DNA of 64,000 nucleotides, from assembly GCF_030013595.1 (NCBI RefSeq), contig NZ_CP122768.1; one strand, given 5' to 3'. Below are positions 13,221-50,400 of the stretch, piece after piece (the stretch's first letter is position 1; each line of letters begins with the position of its first letter). The notes under the pieces are model-generated. The model was not told the origin of the DNA and searched no databases. It was given only the letters and a program-made list of their open reading frames with translations. Source of the DNA: Escherichia coli (GTDB taxonomy: Bacteria; Pseudomonadota; Gammaproteobacteria; Enterobacterales; Enterobacteriaceae). Both the position numbers and the translations under genes were made by a program.

Positions 13221-13246
13221 GGTTGTTACCTCGTTACCTTTGGTCG

Positions 13247-13282
13247 AAAAAAAAGCCCGCACTGTCAGGTGCGGGCTTTTTT
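13247..13282 (-). terminator. thr operon attenuator terminator
   Basis: GCCCGCA/TGCGGGC hairpin (13255-13276) flanked by A8 and T6, between thrL and thrA. Confidence 0.8.
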
Positions 13283-13300
13283 CTGTGTTTCCTGTACGCG

Positions 13301-13369
<69 letters not shown>

Positions 13370-42565: not shown

Positions 42566-44152
42566 TTAATGCTCGCGGGTCTGGTGGAACTGAACGTCCG
42601 GATAACGTTCCTGCGCCAGACGCAGGTTGACCATGCTGGTAGCGATGTAAGCGAGGTTATCGCCGCCATCAAGCGCCAGTTGGCTTTCGTTCTTACGCTT
42701 GAACTCTTCGAATTTCTTCGCGTCCGCACATTCTACCCAGCGGGCAGTGGCAACGTTGACTGACTCATACACTGCTTCAACGTTGTATTCGCTCTTCAGG
42801 CGCGCTACCACCACATCAAACTGCAGCACACCAACTGCACCAACGATCAGGTCGTTGTTGGAGATCGGACGGAACACCTGCACCGCGCCCTCTTCGGAAA
42901 GCTGTACCAGCCCTTTGAGCAGCTGTTTTTGCTTCAGCGGATCTTTCAGGCGGATACGACGGAACAGTTCCGGTGCGAAGTTCGGAATACCGGTGAACTT
43001 CATCATCTCCCCCTGGGTAAAGGTGTCACCGATCTGAATAGTGCCGTGGTTGTGCAGGCCGAGGATATCGCCCGGATACGCTTCTTCAACGTGCGAACGG
43101 TCGCCCGCCATAAAGGTCAGCGCGTCGGAGATCACCACATCTTTCGCGGTGCGCACCTGGCGCAGCTTCATGCCTTTTTCATATTTACCGGATACCACGC
43201 GCATAAACGCCACGCGGTCGCGGTGTTTCGGGTCCATGTTGGCCTGAATTTTAAATACGAAGCCGGTAAATTTGTCTTCGCTCGCTTCTACGGTACGGGT
43301 ATCAGTCTGACGCGGCATCGGCGCAGGTGCCCACTCCACCAGGCCATCCAACATATGATCGACGCCGAAGTTACCTAGCGCAGTACCGAAGAATACCGGA
43401 GTGATTTCGCCCGCAAGGAATAATTCTTTGTCGAACTCGTTAGACGCGCCTTTCACCAGTTCCAGTTCGTCACGCAGCTGCTGCGCCAGATCTTCACCAA
43501 CCGCAGCATCGAGATCCGGGTTATTCAGCCCTTTAACAATGCGGACTTCCTGAATGGTGTGGCCTTTACCACTCTGATAAAGATAGGTTTCATCTTTATA
43601 AAGGTGGTAAACGCCTTTAAACAGCTTGCCGCAGCCAATCGGCCAGGTGATCGGCGCACAGCCGATTTTCAGCTCGTTCTCAACTTCATCGAGCAGTTCC
43701 ATCGGGTCGCGGATATCACGGTCAAGTTTGTTCATAAAGGTGAGGATCGGCGTGTCACGCAGACGGGTAACTTCCATCAGCTTGCGGGTACGATCTTCAA
43801 CACCTTTTGCGGCGTCGATAACCATCAGGCAGCAGTCCACCGCCGTCAGGGTACGATAGGTATCTTCCGAGAAGTCTTCGTGCCCCGGGGTGTCGAGCAG
43901 GTTAACCAGGCAATCGTGATACGGAAACTGCATCACAGACGTAGTAATGGAGATCCCACGCTGCTTTTCCATCTCCATCCAGTCCGACTTAGCGTGCTGG
44001 TTGGAACCACGGCCTTTTACTGTACCGGCGGTCTGAATGGCCTGTCCGAACAGCAGCACCTTCTCGGTGATGGTAGTCTTACCGGCGTCTGGGTGAGAAA
44101 TAATTGCAAAGGTTCTTCTTTTCGCTACCTCTGCGGCCAAAAGGCTTGTCAT
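42566..44152 (-). CDS. prfC: Peptide chain release factor 3
   Basis: Translation [40 protein letters not shown] (GTPase G1); track ORF starts at an upstream TTG (44179). Confidence 0.9.
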
Positions 44153-44171
44153 AATTGTTGTCTCGTTGATT

Positions 44172-44288
44172 ATGTACAATCATATGTACAAAGAAAAATT
44201 CATGCCGCTGATTGTACATTTTGGAGGTATCAGAGCATAGCAGAACATGATCAGTAGGTGTATTTGTAGCCAAAGCTCATTTGTACAT
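44172..44288. repeat. Cluster of four TGTACA-core repeats near the prophage-host junction
   Basis: ATGTACAA at 44172-44179 and 44184-44191; inverse TTGTACAT at 44212-44219 and 44281-44288. Confidence 0.35.
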
Positions 44289-44305
44289 GCCGCAATCTTC
44301 GTTCT

Positions 44306-44356
44306 ATTGACACTGTTTATTCACCCAGTTAAAAATAAGACTGTATACAAACACAG
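44306..44356 (+). promoter_or_regulatory. SOS-type promoter with LexA box upstream of the dinI-like gene
   Basis: Consensus -35 TTGACA (44306-44311); CTGT-N8-ACAG box CTGTATACAAACACAG (44341-44356); RBS GAGGG (44361-44365). Confidence 0.6.
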
Positions 44357-44371
44357 TATAGAGGGAATTTT

Positions 44372-44648
44372 ATGCGTATTGAGATCTGCATAGCCAAAGA
44401 GAAAATGACTAAACTGCCAAACAGCGCTGTGGATGCGTTAGAAGGAAGAATTAACCCGACGCACCGGTAAGCGTTATGAAGATGTAGAGGTGATCGTAAA
44501 AGCCACCAGCAATGATGACCTTTCTGTTACACGCACCGCCGATAAAGATTCAGTTAAAATTTTTGTTCAGGACACTCTGAAAGATACCTAGGAATTTGCT
44601 GACGAGTGATTTAGTTCATCATCTCTGGACACAATTCACTTGTATTGA
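44372..44648 (+). pseudogene. dinI-like gene with one frameshift and two stops at Trp positions
   Basis: Frame 1 [23 protein letters not shown] ends at TAA after a 1-nt frame slip near 44441; next frame continues [49 protein letters not shown], then TAG (44589-44591), EFADE, TGA (44607-44609), FSSS; the two stops sit where DinI proteins have the TWESADDWF tryptophans. Confidence 0.65.
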
Positions 44649-44674
44649 CTTTAAGATCATTAAATTGTAATAAT
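44645..44674 (+). promoter_or_regulatory. Candidate sigma-70 promoter for the leader/SLATT/RT transcript
   Basis: -35 TTGACT (44645-44650), 18-nt spacer, extended -10 TGtAATAAT (44666-44674); predicted start near 44681. Confidence 0.45.
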
Positions 44675-44680
44675 TCAAAA

Positions 44681-44815
44681 GGATGGGGCAGTTTTTTCCT
44701 CTTGCGTATGCAAGGGCGGCTCTGATAATGAACAGTAATATTTTACTGTTGAGCTTATGCTCACTGATCCTGCCGAGCAGGATGTTCAACGGTTCCAATA
44801 TATCCTGCCCCTTCC
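44681..44815 (+). ncRNA. Candidate structured leader or ncRNA upstream of the SLATT-RT operon
   Basis: 11-nt inverted repeat GGATGGGGCAG (44681-44691) and CTGCCCCTTCC (44805-44815), 10 of 11 bp, enclosing four hairpins: 44701-44714 (5 bp), 44731-44750 (8 bp), 44751-44762 (4 bp), 44767-44783 (7 bp). Alternative reading is a leaderless 51-codon N-terminal extension from ATG 44683. Confidence 0.35.
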
Positions 44816-44835
44816 GCTTTTTAAAAGGATATTTT

Positions 44836-45387
44836 ATGCATGAAAATATTTGGTTTACATATAAAGCCCGTATTCAAGCGCACCATAGACTAGAATGGCT
44901 TGAAAAACACTCTCAATTTATCCTCGTTTGGTATGCTATATTGAGTGCGGTACTTTCAATTATAACGTTACGATTTCCAAAATTTCTAGGAGATAATACA
45001 GATATCGTTGCGGCAATACTTTCAGTGGCTCTACTGGGTATTTCTCTGATCGTATCTAACCTAGATTATCGTGGTCGAGCAATAGCCATGAGAAGGAATT
45101 ATATTGCACTACAGAGACTCTATTTTGATATTAATAACGGCCAACAGTTAACTCTTGAACAGAAAGAAAAATATTTTAATTTGCTCAATGAGGTTGAGAA
45201 TCATCGTGACATAGATGATAAAGTTTCAAGGGTAACTCAAGTTGGACTTACGACTAGACTCCCCACACAAAAAGAAAAAATAATTGTTAAATTATGGATA
45301 TTACGTCGAATGTTTATTACTGTCGGCCTTTATATCCTCCCATTAATATGTCTTTGGATTGACTATGAATGCAAGCAGAGTTTTTAA
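44836..45387 (+). CDS. SLATT-like multi-TM protein (putative membrane effector)
   Basis: ATG 44836 with RBS AAGGA (44824-44828, 7-nt spacer); 183 aa; two adjacent hydrophobic helices (FILVWYAILSAVLSIITL, IVAAILSVALLGISLIVSNL) flanked by amphipathic helices, plus C-terminal MFITVGLYILPLICLWI; stop 45385-45387 overlaps RT start. Confidence 0.7.
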   Translation: MHENIWFTYKARIQAHHRLEWLEKHSQFILVWYAILSAVLSIITLRFPKFLGDNTDIVAAILSVALLGISLIVSNLDYRGRAIAMRRNYIALQRLYFDINNGQQLTLEQKEKYFNLLNEVENHRDIDDKVSRVTQVGLTTRLPTQKEKIIVKLWILRRMFITVGLYILPLICLWIDYECKQSF

Positions 45388-46735
45388 AAAGTCATTCTCG
45401 AAAAAAAACCTTCTAAAAGTATACAATGAAAAAATCAAAGAATCAGGAGCGATTGGCATAGATCGGATTCGTCCATCAAAACTTGATTTAACAATAAAGA
45501 ATGAGATCACTTTTATTTTTGAAAAGGTTAATTGTGGAAATTATAAATTTACAGCATATAAAGAAAAATTAATATCTAAAGGGGCTAACTCTATCCCCAG
45601 ACAGATTTCCATACCAACTGCCAGGGACAGAATTACCCTTAGGGCTCTCTGTGAATGCCTTACAGAAATATATCCTAACTCCAGATTAAAACTACCACAT
45701 ACAGTAATTGACTTATTGAAAAATGCATTAAACAGCGATCTATATGCTGAATATGCAAAAATAGATCTCAAAAGTTTCTATCCTTCAATTGAACATAAAT
45801 TGATATTTAATGCAATAAAAAATAAGATTAGAAAAAAAGAAATTAGGCAGTTAATAACATCATCATTAATCGTGCCTACTGTAAGTGGAAGTACAGGAAG
45901 CAAAGGTGTCCCTAATAATACCAGAGGAGTACCTCAGGGGTTAGCAATATCAAACATTTTAGCTGAAATATCACTATCTGATTTCGACAATGAAATCAAT
46001 AAAATGCATGACATATGGTACATGCGATACGTTGATGACATTCTTATTTTAACGCAAAAAGATCAAGCAACAAAAATTGCATCTCATATCATTGATAAGC
46101 TTCAATCATTAAATTTAAACCCACATCCATTAAATGAAGAGAACTCAAAATCCAAAGTAGGCAGCTTGGATGAAAGTTTCAACTTTTTGGGCTACCACAT
46201 AAAAAATCGAGAATTATTGATAAAACATGAGAGCATTCTTAGATTTGAGTCATCCTTAGCAAAAATTTTTACTGCATATAGACACGCTCTACTACAAGCT
46301 AAAAATAAGCGCGATAAAGAACGAGCTGTTGCATATTGTCAGTGGAAACTAAATCTTAGAATTACGGGGTGTGTGTTTGAAGGTAAACGATTGGGATGGG
46401 TATCGTACTTCTCACAAATAACGTCAACAGCTCAACTTCGAGCTGTTAATCATACGATCAATAATCTTATCCGCCGATTCGGCCTTTCATCAGAAATAAA
46501 ACCAAAGTCTTTGATTAAAACTTTCTATGAACTCCGCAGGGGTAGAGCGGAGACTTTTAAATACATACCTAACTTTGACAATCTACATATATCTCAGAAA
46601 CGAGAAATTGTTTCTATGTGGATAGGGAAAGAGAATGAAAAAAAACTTAGCAATAGTGAAATAGAGAGAAAATTTAAATTTAAAATTGCGAAATCAGTAA
46701 AAGAGCTTGAAGAGGACATTTCAGGGATATCATAG
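45365..46735 (+). CDS. Reverse transcriptase (RT domain plus ~170-aa C-terminal extension), family unassigned
   Basis: RT motifs in order: GIDRIRPS...IPRQISIPTARDRITLRAL, YAKIDLKSFYPSI, GVPQGLAISNILAEISLSDFD, YMRYVDDILIL (YVDD at 46028-46039), FLGYHI; ATG 45365 (track ORF starts at TTG 45359); AT-rich. Confidence 0.85.
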   Translation: MNASRVFKKSFSKKNLLKVYNEKIKESGAIGIDRIRPSKLDLTIKNEITFIFEKVNCGNYKFTAYKEKLISKGANSIPRQISIPTARDRITLRALCECLTEIYPNSRLKLPHTVIDLLKNALNSDLYAEYAKIDLKSFYPSIEHKLIFNAIKNKIRKKEIRQLITSSLIVPTVSGSTGSKGVPNNTRGVPQGLAISNILAEISLSDFDNEINKMHDIWYMRYVDDILILTQKDQATKIASHIIDKLQSLNLNPHPLNEENSKSKVGSLDESFNFLGYHIKNRELLIKHESILRFESSLAKIFTAYRHALLQAKNKRDKERAVAYCQWKLNLRITGCVFEGKRLGWVSYFSQITSTAQLRAVNHTINNLIRRFGLSSEIKPKSLIKTFYELRRGRAETFKYIPNFDNLHISQKREIVSMWIGKENEKKLSNSEIERKFKFKIAKSVKELEEDISGIS

Positions 46736-46847
46736 ATATGTAATCCATTAAATCCTTTATATATAAAGCAATAAACACACTATTTAAATTCACAAATCAG
46801 CCGCAGTATCCTGCCATGACAAGTTGCTGCGGCATATCACAAAACGA

Positions 46848-47432
46848 TTACTCCATAACAGGGACCGCAGGCCACTCAATATCAGGTGCAGTTGATGTAT
46901 CAACACGGTTCAGCAACACCCGATACTTTTTCCAGGCTTCCAGCAATGAGTTTTCTTCCTCCGTTGCGATTTCCAGATCTACAGCATCCTGAAGTGGCGC
47001 AATATGCTCACTGGCTACCTGCATCAGGTTGTTTTTTGTTTCTTCCGCCTCCCGGATCCGGAACAGTTTTTCTGCTTCCGTATCCTTCAACCAGGCTGTG
47101 CCGTTCCACTTCTGATATTCCCCTTCCGGCGATAACCAGGTAACATTTTCCGGTAACGGACCGAGTTCAGAAATAAATAACGCGTCGCCGGAAGCCACGT
47201 CATAAACCGTTTTACCCCGATGATCTTCAACGAGATGCCACGATGACTCATCACTGTTGAAAACAGCCACGAAGCCAGCCGGAATATCTGGCGGTGCAAT
47301 ATCGGTACTGTTTGCTGGCAGACCTGTATGAGGCGGAATATATGCGTCACCTTCACCAATAAATTCATTAGTTCCGGCCAGCAGATTATAAATTTTTATG
47401 GTCCGTGGTTGTTCACTCATTCTGAATGCCAT
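46848..47432 (-). CDS. tfa: Tail fiber assembly protein Tfa
   Basis: 194-aa [61 protein letters not shown]; reads as lambda Tfa. Confidence 0.9.
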
Positions 47433-50400
47433 TATGCAAGCCTCACAATATAGTTAAATGCGATGTTTTTGACGGTGTTTTCCGCGTTACCAGCAGCGTT
47501 AACGGTGATGGTGTGTCCATGTGAACCAATCGCAACGGAGTGCGTGTGTGCACCAATACCGACAGTATGTGCGTGTGCACCTGCAGATGCTGCTGTGCCG
47601 GACAGTGAGTGGCTATGGTTACCATCTGTACTGGTATTAGCTAACGCCCCCGTAGACATACCTACTGAGCCTTGTACACCCCAGGTATTTTGACCTGAGC
47701 TTGTATAACCATATTGATAAGTATCTTTAAAAACACTGGGGTTAAATCGACGGCCATCTCTATGGCTGTGATTACCAGCTGCATTCGTGCTGCCACTTAA
47801 ACTATGGGTATGCGCACCAGTGTTATTCGTGGATTTAGTGCCGTAATCAAACGACGATGTGGTTTTCGTCCCCAAATCAGTACTGGATGCGCTGGCGCTG
47901 TGGGTATGCGATTTTATGCCGTCCTGTTCCTGAGACAATACGGCACGACCACTGGCGGGCTTGCCCTTAATCGTCCAGCCACGCATATCAGGGATCACGC
48001 CTGACGGATAAGCGGCTGCAAGTTTCGGGTAGGCAGATTTGTCAAAAGTCTGCCCCTGCATCAGGGCATAACCAGACGGAACGGTATCTGATGGCCACGG
48101 AATTGGTGCGCCAACTGGGTAGCTTTCTGGTGGAAGATTTTTCGAGGTATAAACTTCTGCCCAGCCTTCCTCAAAACCATAGCCATCTCTTGAGGAACGG
48201 TAGAACAGACCTCCATTTCTGTAATGCGCCTTCATCTGCAGGGTCCGGCAACTTCCGACTCCGGTATAGAAGTTAACCAGAATATAGCTGTCGCCAGAGC
48301 GGGTGACATTGTAAGCGCCTGATTCGGCATTCCAGGGAACGCCACCATCCGCATCGGCATATGTATCCGTTGCCCTTCTGGCAAAAGCAGCCACATGCGC
48401 GGCGGTTAAAGTAATATCTTTTGAACCATCAAACTCAACCCCAGAAACCAGTCTTGGCGTTTGCAGCTTTGTTGCTGTCAATGCGTTACCGTTCAGACTT
48501 GCAGACAGTTTGGTTCCAATAACCAGTTCGCCGGTTGCGTTATCAATAGCAAACGGTCTTAATGTATTCCAGCCACCATAAACATCACCTTGATTGGTAA
48601 GCAGCAGGTAAGTTTTAGCGCCATCATTACGCCATAATGCCCCATACTCCCCACCTATCATTCGAATCTGATTACCACCACGCGCTACAATTTCGTCTGT
48701 GGCAAAAAGTTTTTTGCACGACAAGTTATCGTTAACGATTAACGAATGGGACTCATAAAAACCACGCCCACTCTTAAAATCAAGGATAACGTCCGCCGCG
48801 ATACATTCAGTCGCCGGATTTGTTGCCCCAAACTTATAGGTCGTATCATTAACAACGAGATCAGCACCAGGTGCGGATATTGACAGGCCATCTTCGATAA
48901 ACGCAAAAACAGGGAAAGCAGCGCCATCAACATAGAACACAGAGCGCAAATCATCGCCCTTATTACTCATCATTATTGAGTGGATGGCTCGTTCATTGTT
49001 TTGATATTGCCAGAACATTCCATAAGCATAACGCCCCCTGTCAGTCCAGCCACCAGGCATAACAAATCCGTTAAACTCGCAGTTATTCATCGGATCGCCT
49101 GCGGTTCTCGTTGCCGTGGTGATAATGACCCTTGATGCCAGTTCGCTTACTGAGCCAGCAGAACGCATAACAACAACAGGGTAATATTTTCCAGATGTTG
49201 CACCTGCAGGAGCGTTAACCCGCACATAACGCATACCACGCTTATCAGCAAAGTCTGTTTTACTGACCGCGTTAATGTTGTTCAGGAAGCGTCCCTTATC
49301 GGGTATATCAGCGCCGTTCTGGTCTTTCTGCAGACGTTTCTCTGCATTGTCATAGGCTGATTTTACTGCCTTTGGCGTTGCCGCCAGCGTTTCAGACGAA
49401 CTGTTGGTCGCACAGCTGAGCTGTACTATCCCCTTTTTCGTCGTACTTGCATCCTCAAGCGCCACGGCGGATGCAATATCCTCTGCCCGTTTTGCCGCTG
49501 TCTCGGCGCGCGTTGCCGCGGATTCCGCCGTACTTTTGCTCTGTGCTGCCGCCGTCGCACTGCCAGCTGCCTCTGTCGCCTTCGTGGATGCTGTCGTGGC
49601 GCTGCCCTTCGCTGCGGACGCTTGTCTGGTCGCCTCATCTTTTGAAGCAGACGCCGATGATGCCGATGACGCCGCCGAACTGGCGGACGATGCAGCTGCC
49701 ATTTTTGAGGATTCTGCGCTGGTTTCCGACGCTTTCGCGTTCGTCTCGGATGTCTTCGCTGCGGAAGCAGACCTCGCTGCTGCGCTGGCCTGTTCAGTGG
49801 CTTCGCCAGCCTTCGTTGTGGCTGTTGAAGCAGACGATGCGGCACTTTCTGCCGATTTTCCGGCGGCGGTGGCACTGGCTGAGGCCTGCCCGGCACTTGT
49901 TGACGCGGCACTGGCAGACGACGCAGCCGCTGTTTTTGAGCCTGCCGCAGCCGAGGCGCTCTGTCCCGCTGCCGTTTCAGAAGACCTGGCGTTTGTCTCA
50001 GACGTCTTTGCCGCCTTCGCGGAATTGCCTGCCGCCGTTGCCGAGGAAGCGGCACTACTGGCGCTTGATGATGCGTTCGTTTCTGATGATTTCGCTGCCT
50101 CTTTTGAGGCCGCCGCATCCCGGGCTGAGGTGGCTGCTTCTGACGCCTTCGTGGTCGCGGCGGATGCAGAAGTTGCTGCTGATTGTTGTGACGCTGCCGC
50201 ATTCGTTTCTGACGTTTTCGCCGCAGCGGCACTGGTAGCTGCCGCGCTTTTTGAGGACTCTGCAGCAGCAGCACTTTTCGATGCTTCACTGGCCTTTGTT
50301 GATGCCGTTCCTGCGCTGGAAGATGCTGACTGAGCCGACGACGCGGCCTGTCCGGCTGACGTGCTGGCTGCGCGTGCTGAGCCTGCAGCATCAGTCGCAT

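Follow-up and report, generated by a model that had tools for sequence, protein, structure and literature searches.

The association of UG17 reverse transcriptases (RTs) with SLATT membrane proteins was described in 2022, together with its enrichment in defence islands and a toxicity linked to SbcB (PMC9226505). Anti-phage activity of the system was demonstrated in 2025, when it also received the name DRT10 (PMC12632851), and two preprints from 2026 have added subtypes, regulation and structures solved by cryo-electron microscopy (cryo-EM) (10.64898/2026.04.29.721553; 10.64898/2026.06.29.735271). One member, Eco3DRT10 of Escherichia coli 703491 (RT OKX54664.1), has been studied by genetics, biochemistry and cryo-EM (Tang et al. 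2025, PMC12632851; Ramirez et al. 2026, 10.64898/2026.06.29.735271). Here it is compared with an RT gene and its SLATT-type neighbour in a stretch of 64,000 nucleotides (nt) of E. coli DNA (contig NZ_CP122768.1 of assembly GCF_030013595.1; hereafter the window, to which all positions refer). We conclude, with a probability of roughly 0.93, that this locus is a complete tripartite DRT10 anti-phage system (UG17, with the SLATT gene preceding the RT gene) and a natural allele of Eco3DRT10. All three parts, a non-coding RNA (ncRNA), the SLATT gene and the RT gene, are present, intact and homologous to those of the tested system. The system itself is already known: its family, architecture, function and much of its mechanism are published, and the only new point is that the window carries a common template allele other than the one studied. 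The main value of the analysis is a correction: the proper annotation of the locus is DRT10 (UG17-A), including a third gene that is non-coding and was left out by RefSeq, by Rfam 15 and by an earlier note made from the sequence of the window.

The wider interest of DRT10 lies in its telomerase-like repeat addition combined with serine-primed reverse transcription, a discovery that is already published. Eco1-3DRT10 protect against phages in a manner dependent on the RT active site, on SLATT and on the ncRNA (PMC12632851), as does the UG17-A model system of Escherichia sp. E3659, where all three parts are needed (Sanchez-Nieto et al. 2026, 10.64898/2026.04.29.721553). The E3659 system differs from the window in its 7-nt repeats, its different template and its shorter RT gene, and the SbcB dependence and the trigger Bas52_0087, which resembles a single-stranded DNA-binding protein (SSB), were reported there rather than for an Eco3-type allele. 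The priming residue also varies within DRT10, being serine in the Eco3 type and tyrosine in the Eco1 type. Among the class 2 UG systems, DRT9 (UG28) and DRT2 (UG2) resemble DRT10 in performing iterative ncRNA-templated reverse transcription into repetitive complementary DNA (cDNA), and DRT9 additionally has a similar ncRNA fold and is also protein-primed (PMC12632851). Unlike DRT10, however, DRT9 produces poly-dA from a poly-U template, is primed from tyrosine and forms a hexamer, and DRT2 synthesizes a gene by a rolling-circle process. An analogy has been drawn with telomerase (TERT and its RNA, TR), which has in common with DRT10 a short A-B-A' template, a structured 5' template boundary and repeat-addition processivity (PMC12632851). 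DRT10 differs from telomerase in priming from its own serine rather than from a chromosome end, in size (456 vs ~1100 amino acids (aa)), in its 2:1 RT:RNA stoichiometry and in its role in phage defence.

The reverse transcriptase and its SLATT partner

In Eco3DRT10, an ncRNA is followed by the SLATT gene and an overlapping gene for a 456-aa RT with a YVDD motif and a C-terminal S456, and the window has the same arrangement. The SLATT_5 membrane effector gene (44836-45387, + strand) runs from an ATG at 44836 to a TAA at 45385-45387, encodes 183 aa and is preceded by a Shine-Dalgarno sequence, AAGGA, 8-12 nt 5' of the ATG. The RT gene (45365-46735, + strand) begins with an ATG at 45365, ends with a TAG at 46733-46735 and encodes 456 aa; an alternative upstream start, TTG 45359, would give 458 aa in the translation of the open reading frame (ORF). 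The SLATT stop lies beyond the RT start, and the two genes share 23 nt. The same two coding sequences (CDSs), WP_000545005.1 and WP_000994250.1, are annotated by RefSeq in a genome that is 100% identical here (E. coli ETEC-2265). The coordinates, lengths and overlap of the two genes given in the earlier note were borne out by the ORF translations and the RefSeq CDSs. The interval it had drawn, 44836-46735, contains both genes, but leaves out the promoter and the ncRNA (44645-44817), the latter being essential in the tested systems.

To assign the RT to a family, both proteins were compared with profile models. The RT matched the PADLOC model RT_UG17 with 527 bits (E = 8.3e-159), its residues 1-456 aligning with positions 1-429 of the 429-position profile, and the runner-up in PADLOC, Drt3a, scored 127 bits. 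The PADLOC models for DRT9 and DRT2 gave 85 and 64 bits, far below RT_UG17, the NCBIfam Drt2 model fell far under its curated cutoff, and Pfam recognized the domain RVT_1 (E = 1.6e-20). For the SLATT protein, matches were obtained with PADLOC RTasSLATT (PDLC03819, E = 2.8e-57), NCBIfam SLATT_5 (133.6 bits, cutoff 60) and Pfam SLATT_5 (E = 2.7e-28). Kyte-Doolittle hydropathy revealed two strong transmembrane segments (residues ~28-46 and ~57-75) and, as a third, a hydrophobic stretch towards the C-terminus (~153-175), in agreement with the SLATT-like topology that had been proposed. A sequence search of the PDB, in a copy without DRT10 entries, returned group II intron RTs (GsI-IIC RT closest) and Drt3a as nearest to the RT and no match for the SLATT protein. 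On sequence grounds, the RT belongs to UG17 and the pair is DRT10 with the SLATT-then-RT order. The earlier note was thus wrong in placing the RT in an unassigned family, and a named system with the same architecture, the finding that it had itself set against its proposal, was found in DRT10. Its broader description, a prophage-borne RT defence module with a translationally coupled SLATT partner, appears right by homology to DRT10.

All the RT motifs that had been quoted for the protein are present in its translation (YMRYVDDILIL, GVPQGLAISNILAEISLSDFD, NALNS, RITG and FLGYHI). The YVDD comprises residues 222-225 (codons 46028-46039) and is intact. The C-terminus reads EEDISGIS, with Ser456 as the last residue (codon 46730-46732). 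Ser456 is unchanged in 16 RTs with identities down to 60%, a count of its presence only, and its role in priming would follow by analogy. The ~170-aa C-terminal extension noticed earlier does exist, but it can be named: in the Eco3DRT10 structure it corresponds to the thumb and a C-terminal domain carrying the priming serine (10.64898/2026.06.29.735271).

Direct comparison with Eco3DRT10 placed the window close to the studied system. Over the part of OKX54664.1 that is given in Table S1 of PMC12632851, 377 of 397 RT residues are identical (95%), and the SLATT proteins share 164 of 183 residues (90%). Table S1 also holds exactly the SLATT protein of the window, along with RTs that show no more than one difference from the window RT across the length annotated for them, which is truncated at the 5' end. 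The OKX54664 protein is annotated two residues too long (458 aa), the true protein having 456 aa and ending in the priming Ser456 (PMC12632851); the window RT has the same TTG/ATG start pair and the same length as the Eco3 RT. An exact-sequence lookup with the 458-aa form of the RT from E. coli allele L019 did not retrieve OKX54664, and its sequence was taken from Table S1 instead. A distant blastn search of complete E. coli genomes found nothing outside the allele group of at least 94% identity, Eco1- and Eco2-type systems being beyond the reach of DNA comparison.

The non-coding RNA and its template loop

A structured ncRNA of ~137-143 nt directly 5' of SLATT is characteristic of DRT10. Upstream of the SLATT gene, a consensus scan identified a predicted sigma-70-like promoter at 44645-44674 (+), consisting of TTGACT, an 18-nt spacer and a TG-extended AATAAT. 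It matches the consensus at 10 of 12 positions with TG before the -10 element, which as a consensus match makes it a predicted promoter. The promoter sequence is shared without change by three E. coli alleles with ~5% divergence between their RTs, and TTGACT occurs at the equivalent relative position in homologues of 77-82% identity. The predicted start is at ~44681, and transcription would accordingly begin at nt 1 of the 137-nt DRT10 ncRNA (44681-44817, +), which was delimited by its fold, covariation, a covariance model and the Eco3 numbering.

Folding of 44678-44826 gave a junction that is closed by a basal stem and carries four small hairpins as well as an open loop of ~20 nt, the layout of stems and loops published for Eco3DRT10. 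The minimum free energy was -53.9 kcal/mol (z = -4.8), and 0 of 200 shuffled sequences were equally stable. In this fold, all on the + strand, the basal stem of stem-loop (SL) 1 pairs 44681-44691 with 44805-44815 and encloses SL2 (44699-44716), Loop A (44717-44730), SL3 (44731-44750), SL4 (44751-44762), SL5 (44767-44783) and the template loop, Loop B (44784-44804). With nt 1 set at 44681, the published Eco3 numbering fits the window bases exactly at U43 and G44 in Loop A and at G111, C116, A117 and U119 in Loop B. It places A at 107-110 and A' at 116-119, with the same total of 137 nt and the same five stems. SL1 is G+C-rich, and two of the eight pairs in SL3 are G-C, in agreement with the 25% GC reported for Eco3DRT10.

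To examine whether the fold is conserved, upstream regions were extracted from 38 prophage or viral loci coding for relatives of the RT. A SLATT ORF abuts the RT in every one of these loci with enough upstream sequence. Three close E. coli alleles differ by three substitutions, all unpaired, and such alleles are uninformative for covariation; homologues from viral contigs with 59-82% RT identity were therefore used. In an alignment of 12 distinct homologues made by MAFFT alone, RNAalifold recovered the basal stem, SL2, SL3 and SL5, with 13 of 34 pairs compensatory. When the window fold was projected on this alignment, 94.2% of cells could pair, compared with ~49% for slid partners. Double-sided changes were observed in 17 of 36 pairs, against 0-5 for slid partners and 6.9 ± 1.8 for shuffles, none of 500 of which reached the observed value. 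A covariance model trained on nine distant homologues, with neither the window nor any E. coli allele among them, gave a single strong match in the 64-kb window, at 44681-44818 (+), over the full length of the model (126.5 bits, E = 2e-30). The same model found one match 5' of SLATT in 26 loci and none in L038 and L040, the most distant loci (RT 34-37% identical, SLATT present upstream), which fits the subtype-specific ncRNAs reported in 10.64898/2026.04.29.721553. No ncRNA family of Rfam 15 was detected at the locus, either in a permissive scan of 44100-47000 or in a scan of the whole window at gathering thresholds.

Two side observations concern the variation of this RNA. In locus L039 (2295-2444; RT 59% identical), an extra hairpin lies between SL3 and SL4 and the model still matches with 90 bits, which echoes the published tolerance to addition or removal of SL4 (10.64898/2026.06.29.735271). 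Among E. coli alleles (window compared with L002 and L003), 3 of 137 ncRNA positions differ, all of them unpaired, and the promoter is unchanged. Since the RT protein differs by ~4-5% and the SLATT protein by ~10% from Eco3, it is the ncRNA that is under the strongest constraint.

The 3' end of the RNA runs directly into the gene pair. Within 44805-44830 (+), the G+C-rich 3' arm of SL1 is followed by GCUUUUU and, a few bases on, by the SLATT Shine-Dalgarno sequence. SL1 may double as a leaky terminator, and SLATT and RT could then depend for their expression on transcripts that start at the ncRNA promoter and read through SL1. No separate SLATT promoter stood out in the promoter scan of the region.

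The A-B-A' template lies in Loop B at 44787-44799 (+), with A = CAA(C) at 44787-44790, B = GGUUC at 44791-44795 and A' = CAA(U) at 44796-44799. It begins 4 nt after SL5, in the same register as CAAU-GAUUC-CAAU in Eco3 (nt 107-119), and reads CAACGGUUC-CAAU in the window vs CAAUGAUUC-CAAU in Eco3. The window template has C110 and G112 where Eco3 has U110 and A112, so that the repeat predicted for the window is GAACCGTTG instead of GAATCATTG. The cDNA product of Eco3DRT10, GAATCATTG, was sequenced (PMC12632851), and by analogy we predict that the window allele would produce a 5'-GAACCGTTG-3' repeat, (GAACCGTTG)n, primed from Ser456. The exact Eco3 template, CAATGATTCCAAT, is present in the E. 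coli alleles L019 and L020 (RT ~95% identical), the first of which differs from the window by three further ncRNA substitutions at unpaired positions. The window template, CAACGGTTCCAAT, was found in 17 fetched loci compared with 2 for the Eco3 template, and these include homologues at ~77-82% RT identity. That it is the commoner allele and is kept at this distance argues for selection.

Presumed mechanism and alternative readings

For the window allele, the steps of the mechanism are carried over from the work on Eco3DRT10 (PMC12632851; 10.64898/2026.06.29.735271). The 137-nt ncRNA would be transcribed from its own promoter and bound by two RT monomers. The monomer at Loop B would use the hydroxyl of Ser456 at its own C-terminus as the primer for DNA synthesis, beginning opposite C116, and would copy the 9-nt template back to C107, with SL5 fixing the boundary. 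The cDNA 3' end (...GTTG) would then re-anneal to the downstream A' (CAAU), in the window allele through three Watson-Crick pairs and a dG:rU wobble, and the cycle would repeat. The expected product is single-stranded tandem repeats of kilobase length, covalently joined to the RT, whereas the monomer at Loop A would make only an abortive product of ~10 nt. The cDNA pool would be modulated by host exonuclease I (SbcB) and by phage SSB-like proteins, and the co-translated SLATT protein would be the effector that arrests the infected cell. In the published systems, SLATT is required and is presumed to be an effector that disrupts the membrane, toxicity is kept in check by SbcB, and one homologue is triggered by an SSB-like protein of a phage (PMC12632851; 10.64898/2026.04.29.721553).

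Readings that would place the RT outside DRT10 were considered against the same profile scores. If the locus were a retron, its RT would synthesize branched msDNA on an msr/msd RNA, and SLATT would be the retron effector. Some databases call relatives of this protein "retron-type reverse transcriptase", and the RT has a weak similarity to the retron St85 RT model. The St85 score is 63 bits against a cutoff of 235, however, compared with 527 bits for RT_UG17; the motifs include YVDD and lack NAxxH and VTG; and the ncRNA is of the five-stem DRT10 type instead of msr/msd, the Rfam scans being without a retron RNA. A group II intron RT or maturase could be suspected from the match to TIGR04416 (E = 1e-40) and from GsI-IIC RT being the nearest solved structure by sequence, but that match reaches 139.9 bits against a cutoff of 300, the maturase domain GIIM is not significant (E = 0.12), and neither the permissive nor the gathering-threshold Rfam scan found an intron RNA. 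Nor does the locus look like a diversity-generating retroelement (DGR), as 43800-47600 contains no pair of the template-repeat/variable-repeat (TR/VR) type, only two low-identity AT-rich direct repeats of 21-26 nt that are chance matches. We regard the retron reading and the group II intron or DGR reading as each highly improbable. The retron was rejected on profile scores, and the others on the cutoff, the absent intron RNA and the absent TR/VR pair. Profile-based checks thus agreed with the earlier view that the RT belongs with neither retrons nor group II introns; of the families checked by profile, UG17 and SLATT_5 matched, and retron and group II models stayed under their cutoffs. Hardly any weight can be given to DRT3 (UG3+UG8) or another class 2 UG system, although Drt3a is the second-best PADLOC match and DRT3 can associate with SLATT too (PMC9226505). 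The NCBIfam model for Drt3a (NF041747) gives 112 bits against a cutoff of 200, the PADLOC match is 400 bits under RT_UG17, only one RT ORF is present, with no second RT gene, and ncRNA and template alike belong to the Eco3DRT10 type; this candidate was rejected on scores and architecture.

Several points do weigh against the locus being a working DRT10 system. For the window allele, defence activity, protein priming and repeat synthesis are carried over from publications on a system that is 95% identical, the control of SLATT by cDNA is a hypothesis even there, and the two published studies are at odds over the direction in which the cDNA level changes during infection, down or up (PMC12632851; 10.64898/2026.04.29.721553). 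The match between A and A' in the window is reduced to an exact CAA with a dG:rU wobble at the fourth position, where Eco3 has 4 nt, and the loop also holds a competing 4-nt repeat, GUUC...GUUC, with a period of 8. The DinI-like gene next to the system is a frameshifted pseudogene, indicating some decay in this region. These last features would be accommodated if DRT10 were present but silent or altered in its output, for instance making imprecise or 8-nt repeats due to the template substitutions. In addition, UG17 is toxic without SbcB (PMC9226505; 10.64898/2026.04.29.721553), and broken copies exist: IS1A splits SLATT in strain 510016 (H22, NZ_CP025851.1), and the RT is truncated in L020 (432 aa) and L030 (162 aa), which fits occasional counter-selection of a potentially toxic system. 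In the window, on the other hand, both ORFs, the YVDD, S456, the promoter and all five stems are intact, and an inactive copy is unlikely given these intact parts and the wide conservation. The same template is also the commoner one (17 vs 2 fetched loci) and is kept at ~77-82% RT identity. Furthermore, Eco3 tolerated loss or mutation of the fourth base and a 3-nt A/A', in combinations other than the exact one of the window (PMC12632851). An inactive or altered copy is therefore, in our judgement, improbable, and we retain the reading of the locus as an intact DRT10 system.

With regard to the product of this DRT10 allele, an RT reading three bases further could make 8-nt repeats, (CGTTGAAC)n, or add repeats imprecisely. 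The GUUC register is absent from the homologues L029 and L032, whereas CAA...CAA occurs at loop position 4, with a period of 9-10, in 16 of 16 homologue loops that were correctly extracted. For this reason the 9-nt register is probably the one used, as far as can be judged from the loop sequences.

At least four Loop B templates occur at one position in E. coli and related prophages: CAACGGUUC, CAAUGAUUC, CAACGAUUC and CAAAGUAUC. Close alleles are nearly invariant in the rest of the ncRNA, and the SLATT protein diverges more quickly than the RT (90% vs 95% identity to Eco3). It is a rather unlikely but conceivable explanation that this polymorphism is functional, and that the templates represent specificity alleles, provided that the repeat sequence is read by the SLATT effector or by a counter-defence of the phage. 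If so, the commoner allele of the window, with its competing 8-nt register, could make a different or mixed product.

Prophage context and distribution

The cassette was located with the help of the annotated ETEC-2265 genome, in which a lambdoid prophage of ~45 kb lies between yjjG and prfC. The order is yjjG, integrase, lambdoid head and tail genes, gpJ, lom, tail fibre, tfa, RT, SLATT, DinI-like pseudogene and prfC, with the integrase at the yjjG end and the RT/SLATT cassette at the prfC end, past the tail fibre and tfa. The GC content is 0.31-0.38 over ~44250-47000 and 0.46-0.63 in the flanks. The AT-rich character of the pair and its prophage slot near tfa, both pointed out previously, were thereby confirmed.

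A survey of 5426 complete E. coli genomes found the cassette in 187 (~3.4%), 74 of them at ≥99% identity, and the exact window RT is present on at least 1000 contigs. These genomes hold 189 copies, all chromosomal, with two genomes carrying two copies each. The copies were seen in prophages at two sites, next to prfC (L001 and L002) and next to dusA (L003, NZ_CP075474.1); at the dusA site a tyrosine integrase lies directly 5' of the DinI-like gene. The analysis makes modest additions to what is published: DRT10 is common E. coli prophage cargo at two or more sites, its ncRNA is constrained more than its proteins, and the commonest natural template differs from the studied one.

The DinI-like gene, ncRNA, SLATT, RT, tfa and tail fibre appear as one travelling cassette. 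In the window, the DinI-like gene (44372-44591, +) lies directly 5' of the DRT10 promoter; the gene that is frameshifted here is intact in the PK6 and NT1N28 alleles. Downstream of the RT gene, the Rfam family IS009 (RF02111) gave a full-length match at 46891-47089 (-), with 226 bits against a gathering score of 117. This match lies wholly within the tfa CDS (46848-47432), and the family was probably built on prophage tfa sequence, in which case it would not be an independent RNA gene. Elsewhere in the window, matches at gathering level were obtained for the threonine operon leader and naRNA4 (CssrE), at 13246-13365 (-) and 26281-26359 (-), both of which are ordinary E. coli core features.

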